A DNA stretch of 64,000 nt, from the NCBI RefSeq assembly GCF_000002075.1, contig NW_004797290.1, positions 1,472,743 to 1,536,742 on the forward strand, written 5' to 3'. Source of the stretch: Aplysia californica (lineage: Eukaryota). A model generated the notes under the pieces. The model was not told where the DNA came from. It made no database searches and saw nothing but the letters and a program-made list of their open reading frames with translations. A program made the position numbers and the translations under genes. Positions 32,895 through 59,851 of this stretch are shown here, in pieces (positions within the stretch are counted from its first letter, which is position 1; each line of letters begins with the position of its first letter).

Positions 32895-35800
32895 CTGATG
32901 AGTCACTGAGCAAGGAACAACAAAACATATACTCAACGCTTTACCAGTCACTAGTTCTCATATTGGGAACTTTCTACTTTTTATAAATTGAAACTGGTGA
33001 AGTGGGCACATACTCTACTCAAAAAAGCTGCAAAGCAAGGTAAAAGAAAGTTTAAATCTCTGAAACGAAATCTTTGAGCAAAAAGCTGTGTGACTATTGA
33101 ATATTAAATAGTAGTGAATACTTCTTAGAGACAAATTTCATAACTCTTGTTGGCTCCACTTATCATTCTGTCTAGTAATCATCAACTTCAACTCGTATTT
33201 AACGCAGTGATATAGACCTATAACTTTATGACGGGTTGAGAAAAATTAAATAAAAATCATTTATCGAATTTAAAAAAACATACGCCATTCGAATGGCTTC
33301 AAATAGCTGTGAATAGGGCAACAATCTTGAATGTTGAATAGCAAAATCAAATGGGCACTGCTCTAATACAGACTCCTACACTAGGAAGGAGTCCATCTCA
33401 TTTCAGTTAAAAAACAGGGCAAACAATAATCACGGTTCCGAGATAAAGTGCAAGCTATTGACTTGTATGGCAACAGGTCAAACACAAGCTGCTGGCATTT
33501 ATGAATCATTTGCTACGGAGCAACAGTGTCTGCTTTCCAAGTTTGTATCTCCAGTTTCTGAGACATGTGAGCTGGATTCTAAAACTTCTACATTGTTTGC
33601 TAATGCCATCAATATAGAGCAGAAAAAACTCACAGGAGTTGCAGGTTCCTTGTTGAACCAAGAGAGAACATCTCCACCCCTGATGCATTTTCCATGAGCA
33701 ACATCACACTTGTAGCCGTTGGGGCAGCAGTGAAGATGGTCAGAGCAGCATGTAGCCTGGGCAAAAACATAAAAAAGTCTAACTCAGATTTCTTCATCTT
33801 ATAATTTGTTGCACAGAATAACAAGCACAGACAAATAAGGGTCCTTTTTCTGTTCTCATTCCTCGCCAAAAATGTCCACCCACCATCTGTTCAATTTCTT
33901 GTGCACATAGTGGCTTTCCAGTGTAAAAGAGAATGTTCCCTGTTGATGCAAGCTTTACAGTAAAGCTACAGCTTAATGCCATTGATCTATTTTTGTCAGA
34001 GTCAAGCTGACAATTGAGGAACCATTGTGGGAGCAACAATGTGTGTGTTTCAGCCGTGTTGAACTCTGAGACGGCATTTTCTAACAGCAAGATAAGACCG
34101 GGTTGGACAGCAAAGAGTTAAATCAAAACGCATAAAGAATAAAACAAGTTAACTTTAAAGCGAAAATCCTTTCTAATAATTATAATAAATGACATTTATA
34201 TAGCGCTCAATCCCGAATAAAGTACTCAGGCTCTGAGCGCTTTACAATACCGTACAACATACAACAGTAAAATAAATCGTTGTGTTCTCACTAAAGAAAA
34301 TTATTCCAAATATTCATCTCATTAATTTAAAAACAGAAACGACTTCAGCTGACATTCGAATGAATCAAAAGATGTGATCTCTCTCAAAGTACTTGGTAAA
34401 GCATTCCAGATTTTGGGGCCTTGGTATTGAAAAGCCCTTTCACCCGTTGTTTTAAGTTTCATAGATGGTAAAATAAATTTCTTTTTGTCAGCTGATGACC
34501 TTAAACTACGAGTTGGAATGTACAGTCTTAATAGATTTGATATATATGATAAAAACCATTCTAACATATATATCAACTAGAAAATATATGTCATTGAATT
34601 TTGAACTCACTGATGGCAATGGACAGCAGCCATATTGTCCAGAAGCAAGTTGACAACAGGTGGTTCCATCAGGGCAGTAAGATGTTCCTCCTGGGCACAC
34701 CACATGCTCTACCTCAGGTTTGGGGGCAATCTGAAACATTTCAAATATTCACTTAGTTCTCTTCAGAATAAATTAGAGCCTGACAGATTGCTTAACATGA
34801 CGAATGGTATTCTTCATAAAAAAAGACACAGATCTTTATTTTTCTTATCAAGCTTGATATCTCATTTTAATGTAAACTTCTTTTCACAGAGGGAACAGTA
34901 AGCACACTGACACAATACAGTAGTCTCTGCCTAAGATCCCACCGCTTACGATCCCGGTTCACTAAAGATCCCGCTGTTTTAAGAAAACAGAATTTTTGCT
35001 ATACAAAAGTCACCCCTAAGATCCCGCTCTGATCCACTCTGAAGGTAAACATTTGGCAAAGATCCCGCATTTCTGATCATAATTTATGGAGCAAACACCC
35101 GGGTGGGCACAACCGATCAACCAAGAGTGAAAAGTTGAGATCAATGAACTGGCCGTAGTGTCAAAGATCAGCCTTCGCTCCAGGTGGGATCACATCGTGC
35201 TGTGAACTCTTCCCTGACCAATGCAGCAGTTTTCTCTATTCCTGAGTTTGCGTGACAGACTGAATTTTTATTTTTGTGGTCACAACGTAATGGTGCGTAA
35301 CGACAAAGACAAGGGAACTTGGTCAGAGAAGGAAGGCTATAAATTTTCGACAGGTAAAGAGGAGGGATAAGCGTAGATCTTGAGACTCACGATAGGAAAA
35401 TAAGTGAAAATGGCACGCCTCATGTCACTATGTACTGTGATAGGCCAATTAGTTAACTACTCTTTATTCGCCATATGTCATAAATCCACCCAAGGGGCAC
35501 GTCAGTTCATTTTCGAGCGGAGGGAGAACATTTTACCAATTTGAGCCTTAACATGGGTCACCGTAGATTCTTCCCTGGGTTCATCGGCTAAGGTCCCGCA
35601 TTTTCCTTGCTCCCGAGCACCGGGATCTTAGGCGGAGACTACTGTAATTAATGACCGGAGGAAAACCAAGACAGACAAACAAAACAGAGGTACTGTAAAG
35701 AAGTAGAACCAACCAGTGGTCCTACAACCAAGTATGTGTACTTTTTGGGGGGGTTTTCGGTGTATTTTTTAAATACAACACCCTTCATGAAAAGGAAAAC

Positions 35801-59800: not shown

Positions 59801-59851
59801 ATTAGGGCAGTAAGATGTTCCTCCTGGGCACACCACACGCTCTACAGAATT
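32847..59851 (-). CDS. GRN: Progranulin (granulin precursor) gene, multi-exon, at least 14-15 granulin modules; 5' end with signal peptide not identified
   Basis: Alternating N-half and C-half exons splice in phase 0 to give C-x6-C-x5-CC-x8-CC-x6-CC-x5-CC-x5-C-x6-C ([55 protein letters not shown]), the canonical 12-Cys granulin motif. Confidence 0.95.
33634..33756 (-). CDS. GRN: Granulin C-half exon B1 ([41 protein letters not shown])
   Basis: 123 nt, ccag acceptor, gtgag donor, phase 0. Confidence 0.93.
34174..34548 (-). mobile_element. 5'-truncated LINE 3' fragment of the L2/Crack group (end of ORF2, 3' UTR and tail)
   Basis: Peptide [10 protein letters not shown]...[47 protein letters not shown] fits the conserved C-terminus of CR1/L2-group ORF2. 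The 3' end reads agcgctcagag...tgagcgctatataaat followed by an (ATT)n-like tail. Confidence 0.85.
34611..34730 (-). CDS. GRN: Granulin N-half exon A1 ([40 protein letters not shown])
   Basis: 120 nt, tttcag acceptor, gtgagt donor, phase 0. Confidence 0.93.
34918..35644. mobile_element. pogo/Tigger-like MITE, 727 bp, in a granulin intron
   Basis: TA TSD. 23-bp TIR cagtagtctctgcctaagatccc versus reverse complement cagtagtctccgcctaagatccc (1 mismatch). Repeated gatccc motifs. Confidence 0.9.
35976..36098 (-). CDS. GRN: Granulin C-half exon B2 (...[21 protein letters not shown])
   Basis: 123 nt, ctcag acceptor, gtacc donor, phase 0. Confidence 0.92.
36853..37030 (+). mobile_element. tRNA-derived SINE relic; a similar decayed head lies at ~23849-23910
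   Basis: A-box-like tggtgaaatggttag and B-box-like gttcaattccc at tRNA spacing, but no intact cloverleaf. Confidence 0.5.
37219..37338 (-). CDS. GRN: Granulin N-half exon A2, divergent ([40 protein letters not shown])
   Basis: 120 nt, cacag acceptor, gtaat donor, phase 0, all 6 Cys kept. Confidence 0.92.
37719..37841 (-). CDS. GRN: Granulin C-half exon B3 (...[21 protein letters not shown])
   Basis: 123 nt, ctcag acceptor, gtgagt donor. Confidence 0.92.
38494..38607 (-). CDS. GRN: Granulin N-half exon A3 ([38 protein letters not shown])
   Basis: 114 nt, tatag acceptor, gtatgt donor. Confidence 0.92.
38812..39208 (-). mobile_element. ~397-bp MITE in granulin intron type P; further copies start at ~42269, 44140, 47597, 49468, 51270 and 54727
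   Basis: ~29-bp imperfect TIRs: tgtgaggtgtcgtggtgaaatcaggcgct versus reverse complement tgtgtcaggacgtggtgaaatcaagcgct. Absent from the homologous Q intron. Confidence 0.75.
39552..39674 (-). CDS. GRN: Granulin C-half exon B4 ([41 protein letters not shown])
   Basis: 123 nt, taag acceptor, gtaag donor. Confidence 0.9.
40254..40367 (-). CDS. GRN: Granulin N-half exon A4
   Basis: 114 nt, same peptide as A3, AG/GT boundaries. Confidence 0.9.
41138..41260 (-). CDS. GRN: Granulin C-half exon B5
   Basis: 123 nt, same peptide as B4, taag/gtgag boundaries. Confidence 0.9.
41909..42022 (-). CDS. GRN: Granulin N-half exon A5
   Basis: 114 nt, same peptide as A3. Confidence 0.9.
43009..43131 (-). CDS. 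GRN: Granulin C-half exon B6
   Basis: 123 nt, same peptide as B4. Confidence 0.88.
43780..43893 (-). CDS. GRN: Granulin N-half exon A6
   Basis: 114 nt, same peptide as A3. Confidence 0.88.
44880..45002 (-). CDS. GRN: Granulin C-half exon B7
   Basis: 123 nt, same peptide as B4. Confidence 0.88.
45582..45695 (-). CDS. GRN: Granulin N-half exon A7
   Basis: 114 nt, same peptide as A3. Confidence 0.88.
46466..46588 (-). CDS. GRN: Granulin C-half exon B8
   Basis: 123 nt, same peptide as B4. Confidence 0.88.
47237..47350 (-). CDS. GRN: Granulin N-half exon A8
   Basis: 114 nt, same peptide as A3. Confidence 0.88.
48337..48459 (-). CDS. GRN: Granulin C-half exon B9
   Basis: 123 nt, same peptide as B4. 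Confidence 0.88.
49108..49221 (-). CDS. GRN: Granulin N-half exon A9
   Basis: 114 nt, same peptide as A3. Confidence 0.88.
50208..50330 (-). CDS. GRN: Granulin C-half exon B10
   Basis: 123 nt, same peptide as B4. Confidence 0.88.
50910..51023 (-). CDS. GRN: Granulin N-half exon A10 (SGQYG to SGLYG variant)
   Basis: 114 nt; plus strand reads atacagtcc instead of atactgtcc (CAG to CTG). Confidence 0.88.
52010..52132 (-). CDS. GRN: Granulin C-half exon B11
   Basis: 123 nt, same peptide as B4. Confidence 0.88.
52713..52826 (-). CDS. GRN: Granulin N-half exon A11 (SGLYG variant)
   Basis: 114 nt, same Q-to-L change as A10. Confidence 0.88.
53596..53718 (-). CDS. GRN: Granulin C-half exon B12
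   Basis: 123 nt, same peptide as B4. Confidence 0.88.
54367..54480 (-). CDS. GRN: Granulin N-half exon A12
   Basis: 114 nt, same peptide as A3. Confidence 0.88.
55467..55589 (-). CDS. GRN: Granulin C-half exon B13
   Basis: 123 nt, same peptide as B4. Confidence 0.9.
56197..56217 (-). CDS. GRN: Granulin N-half exon A13, only the 3' end (GCCPLPQ) visible; truncated by the assembly gap
   Basis: Plus strand gcatac|ctgtggcaatggacagcagcc followed by Ns. Confidence 0.85.
56218..56420. other. Assembly gap (203 N) inside the granulin array
   Basis: Run of N. Confidence 1.
56878..56991 (-). CDS. GRN: Granulin N-half exon A14 ([13 protein letters not shown]...PLPQ)
   Basis: 114 nt, tatag acceptor, gtatgc donor. 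Confidence 0.9.
58024..58692. mobile_element. TA-flanked MITE, ~669 bp, in a granulin intron
   Basis: ~34-bp imperfect TIR taggttgttcactttcgtctgtccatgtttaaaa versus reverse complement tagcttgttcactttcatctgaccatggttaaaa, flanked by TA. Confidence 0.75.
58827..58949 (-). CDS. GRN: Granulin C-half exon B14, divergent ([41 protein letters not shown])
   Basis: 123 nt, taag acceptor, gtgagg donor. Confidence 0.92.
59744..59851 (-). CDS. GRN: Granulin N-half exon A15, the most 5' one recognised ([36 protein letters not shown])
   Basis: 108 nt with ttcacag acceptor (an alternative AG lies about 10 nt inside), gtatgt donor; carries an NGT sequon. Confidence 0.88.

Follow-up and report, generated by a model that had tools for sequence, protein, structure and literature searches.

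The progranulin gene of Aplysia californica lies on the minus strand (14 granulin modules at 59851 to 33634) of the window analysed here, a stretch of 64,000 nucleotides (nt) of contig NW_004797290.1 (RefSeq assembly GCF_000002075.1, positions 1,472,743 to 1,536,742), and its tandem granulin modules are encoded by short exons that are almost free of silent differences, while the introns between them are clearly diverged. The reading preferred here, to which a probability of about three in four is given, is that short genomic stretches have been repeatedly copied between the tandem modules, and that the copying persisted where purifying selection keeps the copies alike. Most likely, this is ordinary interlocus gene conversion at the scale of single small exons in one gene.

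Each granulin module is split over an N-half and a C-half exon, a feature of progranulin (Grn) genes, and 14 exons of either kind are joined in frame via GT-AG introns. Pfam Granulin (PF00396) matches all five exons scanned, four of them above the cut-off, and one C-half exon shows a 100% match to an Aplysia californica protein represented by six NCBI isoforms, named progranulin or "fibrillin-3"; the latter name is borne by three of the six, though they are built of granulin modules. Isoform X1 corresponds to the spliced exon products and holds all 14 modules; the 12-cysteine granulin motif was found in 15 modules, and no counterpart of residues 1–127 of the annotated protein was located within the window. 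The acceptors of C1–C11 (window position 58950 and the acceptors of the core C-half exons) are AAG, not the usual CAG or TAG.

The assembled transcript order begins with N1-a1-C1-b1-N2-(a2, gap, a2b)-C2-Q-N3-X-C3-P-N4-Y-C4-Q-N5-Y-C5-Q, continues with N6-X-C6-Q-N7-X-C7-P-N8-Y-C8-Q-N9-X-C9-Q-N10-X-C10-P-N11-Y-C11-Q' and ends with N12-a12-C12-N13-C13-N14-C14. The intron names X, Y, P and Q are the present assignment to the labels of a preliminary description of this DNA, in which N14 was called A1 and whose coordinates and counts hold on recount. The exons C2–C11 (n = 10, 123 nt) and N3–N11 (n = 9, 114 nt) are treated as the core, with C6 and N6 as references. The core exons and their introns are as follows.

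55467..55589, minus: C2, core, T at nt 93
54367..54480, minus: N3, core, X-type
53596..53718, minus: C3, core, C at nt 93, followed by P
52713..52826, minus: N4, Y-type, with Gln to Leu
52010..52132, minus: C4, core
50910..51023, minus: N5, Y-type, with Gln to Leu, Q upstream
50208..50330, minus: C5, core
49108..49221, minus: N6, core, X-type, reference N-half exon
48460..49107, minus: intron X, 648 nt, five assembled copies with 0 differences (others 53719-54366, 46589-47236, 43132-43779 and 41261-41908)
48337..48459, minus: C6, core, reference C-half exon
47351..48336, minus: intron Q, 986 nt, six assembled copies with 0–1 difference
47592..47996, no strand assigned: element within Q resembling a miniature inverted-repeat transposable element (MITE), with 35-nt inverted ends, 83% complementary
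47237..47350, minus: N7, core, X-type
46466..46588, minus: C7, core, C at nt 93
45696..46465, minus: intron P, 770 nt, three assembled copies (others 52827-53595 and 40368-41137)
45582..45695, minus: N8, core, Y-type
45003..45581, minus: intron Y, 579 nt, four assembled copies (others 52133-52712, 50331-50909 and 39675-40253)
44880..45002, minus: C8, core
43780..43893, minus: N9, core, X-type
43009..43131, minus: C9, core
41909..42022, minus: N10, core, X-type
41138..41260, minus: C10, core, C at nt 93
40254..40367, minus: N11, core, Y-type
39552..39674, minus: C11, core
38608..39551, minus: intron Q', nt 1-915 matching Q with one difference, then its own acceptor end

The ten core C-half exons contain a single variable site, the silent CTT/CTC difference that the preliminary description had reported; it lies at exon nt 93 and tracks intron P. 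For the N-half exons it had likewise reported one silent site; this site (CCT/CCA, nt 105, tracking intron Y) is present in the nine core copies, and two of them, N4 and N5, carry an additional Gln to Leu replacement at nt 89. The homology and divergence that it had seen between X and Y and between P and Q are clear from local alignments, where, with unalignable parts excluded and two P/Q blocks overlapping slightly, mismatches amount to 100 in 541 nt between X and Y and to 146 in 650 nt between P and Q, plus indels and the element of ~405 nt in Q (pooled mismatch 246/1191). Application of the intron substitution spectrum to every possible silent exon change predicted 6.4 + 6.4 = 12.8 silent differences, and 1 + 1 = 2 were observed (Poisson P = 2.7e-4); simulation gave a probability of 0.008 for each exon to show at most one difference. 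The silent divergence of the exon paralogues is, therefore, far below the divergence of the linked introns, a comparison that the preliminary description had suggested. The exons N1, N2 and N12, compared with the core over 102 nt, also show 0–1 silent differences, beside homologous introns that are 15–25% diverged from X or Y.

The introns contain indels, repeats and the MITE-like insert, consistent with an escape from homogenisation through indels and insertions; the Q element is high-copy in the DNA sequencing runs and has a relative at window 1947-2333. At the same time, introns of the same type differ at 0–1 site within the array and at 0–2 sites between runs, so that homogenisation or recent amplification also extends to entire units. 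These figures, together with an ordinary, transition-rich intron substitution spectrum, make it very improbable that the modules are simply young and their introns diverge unusually fast through raised intronic mutation or replacement; the many indels and repeat insertions would suit such an explanation, which leaves the patchwork of N14, described below, unaccounted for.

Outside the core, the following features bear on the origin of the identity.

59744..59851, minus: N1, N-half exon, 108 nt, last 102 nt without silent difference from X-type core exons
58950..59743, minus: intron a1, homologous to X/Y with ~23–24% mismatch, nt 1-24 identical to X and Y, contig-supported
58827..58949, minus: C1, nt 1-57 as in the core, all 13 differences later
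56878..56991, minus: N2, 1 nt off the X-type core exon
38494..38607, minus: N12, identical to Y-type core exons
37842..38493, minus: intron a12, homologous to X/Y, 18–25% mismatch
37719..37841, minus: C12, one difference in nt 1-86 and 15 in nt 87-123
37219..37338, minus: N13, diverged N-half exon, ~10.8 silent and 9.2 replacement differences from the core
35976..36098, minus: C13, six differences from the core, introns unalignable
34611..34730, minus: N14, N13-like at nt 1-18 and 118-119, core-identical at nt 19-95
33634..33756, minus: C14, nt 1-72 as in the core, 3' end C12-like

The exon N14 is as long as the diverged N13 and agrees with it over the first 18 nt. Over nt 19-117, one of 99 nt sets it apart from the core exon, nt 19-95 being identical, and at nt 96 and 118-119 it is N13-like again; 13 consecutive sites of its 32 informative ones favour the core (permutation p = 1e-4, or 5e-4 with the indel counted once). 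The near-identity of this exon to the core beside seemingly unrelated introns, noticed earlier, is thus real: the scores of its flanking introns against X, Y, P and Q were reached by 13, 94, 67 and 9 of 100 shuffles, respectively. The intron after C12 also scores like shuffles against the core intron types, and intron a13 is borderline against X (one of 100 shuffles reaches its score). Clustering of differences was found in C1, where all 13 lie after nt 57 (permutation p = 0.002), and in C12, where the final 37 nt hold 15 differences and the preceding 86 nt a single one (p = 0.0007). The exon ends of N14, C1 and C12 are not homogenised, and these three exons are mosaics of tracts with discordant ancestry, as conversion would leave them; C13 and C14 show the pattern weakly. 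Along with the silent deficit, this patchwork argues for the short-tract conversion that the preliminary description had suggested.

Selection at the nucleotide level, acting on splicing enhancers, RNA structure or codon choice, might fix silent sites without any exchange. The C-half exons are compatible with it in their nt 1-57, which 12 of 14 copies share without a difference, the other two being one base off, and so is a conserved flank of 24 nt at the donor end of the introns, which could be a splicing element. Such selection is nevertheless considered unlikely, since N13, which is used in annotated isoforms, differs at ~10.8 silent sites, so that the silent sites of the N-half core are able to vary; besides, site-wise selection does not predict the patch pattern of N14, the GC content at third codon positions is unremarkable (0.39, 0.49), and the 24-nt flank is missing from introns a13 and a14 and differs at 3/24 positions in a2b.

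This flank comprises nt 1-24 of the introns after N-half exons (a1, X, Y and a12), with 141 identities in 144 pairwise comparisons, which are not independent and include the splice signal in the first bases, and with ~75% identity beyond. Intron Q' contains an exchange point inside the intron, as it follows Q for 915 nt and then has its own acceptor end. Homogenisation is, therefore, not strictly exonic, and the earlier statement that conversion is confined to exons is true only roughly: identity extends 24 nt into the donor intron, the ends of N14, C1 and C12 escaped it, and same-type introns are nearly identical.

The preliminary description had also allowed for templating by complementary DNA (cDNA), with reverse-transcribed mRNA as the donor, so that exons alone would be rewritten. 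The concentration of identity in exons, and the homogenisation of terminal exons with unalignable introns, are what this would produce. Recombination with cDNA is expected to remove introns, and none of the 27 introns has been lost, including in the converted regions; moreover, the identity is not limited to mRNA-borne sequence, since the common 24-nt flank is absent from mRNA, several exon ends were left unconverted, and homogenised exons are located at both ends of the array. The flank, the exchange in Q' and the retention of all introns favour a genomic template, and a cDNA donor appears improbable. A broader version, where an RNA-derived or pre-mRNA-derived template rewrites exons without intron loss and causes the recurrent identical granulin modules across animals, is hardly more than a faint prospect; the 24-nt flank may then represent a separately selected splicing element or a partly spliced template.

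A natural control is provided by one more copy, beyond C14.

32776..32894, minus: decayed 15th C-half copy, terminal exon, in another frame, internal acceptor 32871

This exon is identical to C6 at 70 of 116 nt (60%), and, being a copy out of the granulin frame, it has lost identity. Its old acceptor (32896-32895) persists; splicing in the annotated isoforms takes place at a site 23 nt further in, and, owing to the resulting frameshift, the last four residues of the protein are non-granulin.

The possibility of consensus polishing, raised in the preliminary description, was assessed with contigs of four of 24 sequencing runs, placed on 51960-60000: the DNA runs X1, X8 and X10 and the RNA run X21; these are contigs, not raw reads, and run X1 may be the source sample. 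The DNA-run contigs extend over the introns Y, P, X, Q, b1 and a1, in two runs also over a2b, and stop on exon entry; 16 of their 22 ends coincide exactly with those predicted from a 31-mer graph of the window, and the remaining six miss the predicted position by 6, 16 or 47 nt, where a single-copy variant in Y, of the kind lost from contigs, probably explains the 47-nt offset. None of the 22 ends in the three DNA runs belongs to a contig running through an exon; exons with ~6 silent differences would usually let contigs through, which makes polishing unlikely. The RNA run has almost no exon depth, and no inference was drawn from it. An assembly or polishing artefact could draw on the gapped scaffold, on an array order and an intron a2 that look mis-assembled, and on the almost 100% identity of same-type introns. 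It is highly unlikely as the cause of the exon identity, given the breaks of contigs from three separate DNA runs at predicted exon boundaries and the survival of variants tied to their intron context (nt 93 to P, nt 105 to Y) and of the individual ends of N14, C1 and C12, all of which majority polishing would erase.

The region around the gap contains the following features.

56992..58826, minus: intron b1, single copy, partly homologous to P/Q; it carries 36-nt inverted repeats ~600 nt apart
56421..56877, minus: "a2", apparent X/a1 mosaic intron by the N gap, without read-contig support
56199-56217: duplicated 19-nt end of an N-half exon, preceding intron a2b
55590..56198, minus: intron a2b, probably the real intron following N2, with contig 55881-56217 in runs X1 and X8

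The putative intron a2 contains exact X and a1 runs of 80, 103, 69, 48 and 49 nt beside the N gap. It was rejected as proof of intronic conversion, as the depth at 56533-56801 is 0 in all three DNA runs and as its presence would cut the X, a1 and a2b contigs, which are unbroken; it is likely a chimera beside the gap, unsupported and not disproved, since contig simplification can remove such paths. A stretch of 62 nt is duplicated across the 203-N gap (56156-56217 = 56837-56898). The assembled X:Y:P:Q ratio is 1:0.8:0.6:1.4, and the ratios by contig depth, a poor measure of copy number, are 1:0.98:1.0:1.24, 1:0.96:0.84:1.01 and 1:0.67:0.94:0.95 in the three DNA runs; X, Y and P are about equal in depth, ~6x single-copy introns in X1 and X8 and 3–4x in X10, and are assembled in 5, 4 and 3 copies. 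In reality, the array (window 38600-55500) probably consists of about six copies of a regular two-module repeat and not of the irregular order assembled, and the annotated module count may be off. The in-exon switches Q-N5-Y, X-C6-Q and X-C9-Q were not used as crossovers, since the depths make the assembled order doubtful. Run X8 differs from the window at 52184, 53204 and 53561 over the full depth of multi-copy intron contigs, the first difference being present in run X10 too, as if these variants were common to most copies of the unit.

The gene was described at the protein level by Palfree et al. (2015, PMC4527844), whose accessible text reports that 11 of 13 Aplysia modules are identical, that their exons are split and that the pattern recurs across animals; module number is credited there to exon duplication and loss, and the origin is called unclear. 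The term "gene conversion" is absent from that text, and "conversion", "concerted" and "homogen" are absent from the readable supplements. No paper on intron versus exon divergence in Aplysia progranulin was found in a literature coverage that is partial and leaves most subscription journals outside. In a comparison of protein modules from 13 taxa chosen from the matches listed (at least 120), together with the Aplysia isoforms, repeated modules are closer within than between species for 14 of 15 Aplysia modules and, in every one of the 13 taxa, for half of the modules or more. Near-identical modules also occur in Biomphalaria, Lymnaea, Physella, Patella, Mya and Solemya.

In the preferred reading, repeated short-tract copying, the modules would have been duplicated first, and the introns, gathering substitutions, indels and insertions, would then have escaped once they could no longer pair. 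The exons of 114–123 nt, under selection for the cysteine scaffold, would have stayed similar and free of indels and, consequently, convertible; we infer both the drift of introns past the similarity needed for pairing and the lasting convertibility of exons. Silent sites would be carried along with the selected ones by the copying of short tracts. As a second layer, the two-module unit (X-P / Y-Q, about six copies by contig depth) may have been amplified recently or exchanged in register, and same-type introns are proposed to be identical for this reason. Several points weigh against this reading. The silent-deficit test draws on two pairs of intron types and ~50 silent sites; selection on such sites is excluded by internal controls only, and nt 1-57 of the C-half exons lack a diverged in-frame control. 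The clustering of differences is not significant in C13 (p = 0.08) and marginal in C14 (p = 0.03), and the 24-nt flank could be a splicing element instead of a sign of co-conversion. The terminal modules N14, C12, C13 and C14 lie outside the read-covered 51960-60000, contigs drop rare variants, high-copy repeats swamp the listed differences, and the strongest apparent intronic tracts, those of a2, are without read support. The clustering of modules among distant taxa also fits independent recent expansions.

Coding-restricted conversion has been described for yeast whole-genome duplicates by Fawcett and Innan (2011, PMC3924837), where, in the part of the paper available, conversion is silenced in non-coding and kept in coding DNA, purifying selection maintains coding similarity, and indels and transposons end conversion; those duplicates are whole genes with long coding regions, whereas in Aplysia conversion would operate between 114–123 nt exons of one gene. 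According to the accessible portion of a preprint on Arabidopsis halleri HMA4 (bioRxiv 10.1101/2025.10.29.685298), exons are homogenised and long introns escape, and simulations show that short tracts allow the escape; there, three whole-gene copies are involved with intron divergence of at most 5–6%, unlike the divergence of ~20% to unalignable between modules found here. The human LPA kringle IV repeats (Noureen et al. 2015, PMC4378929, available in part) are similarly tandem two-exon, cysteine-rich modules of variable copy number, the types of which differ by 2–3 silent sites, with conversion proposed and with flanking single-copy kringle exons 100% identical to array exons; they belong to a different protein family and have larger exons (160 and 182 bp), and a comparison of exon with intron divergence was not encountered in that part of the paper. 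The exon arrays of Dscam, tandemly duplicated as here, show the opposite outcome and were dropped as a precedent, as the part of PMC3236188 consulted reports no conversion between exons. The red/green opsins, as treated in the available part of PMC3924837, present the reverse of the Aplysia pattern, with homogenised introns and a diverged exon 5.

Elsewhere in the window, a tandem repeat of ~1365 bp (~3.8 copies, 99% identity) is located at 9515-14693, the first unit of which lacks an open reading frame above 90 residues. A dispersed repeat with very high copy number in the DNA runs is present at 55748-55909 (in intron a2b), 483-646 and 25940-26075.

The identity of the Aplysia modules is not simply a matter of recent duplication, as the introns record much older duplications; taking expected over observed silent differences as a gauge, the duplications may be roughly six times deeper than the exons suggest. 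Module trees and ages built from exons understate the true age, and near-identical granulin modules recur independently across animals. The process itself is already known, and what is gained is a case study, not a new mechanism; the locus is a compact system for studying how selection preserves the convertibility of very short exons.

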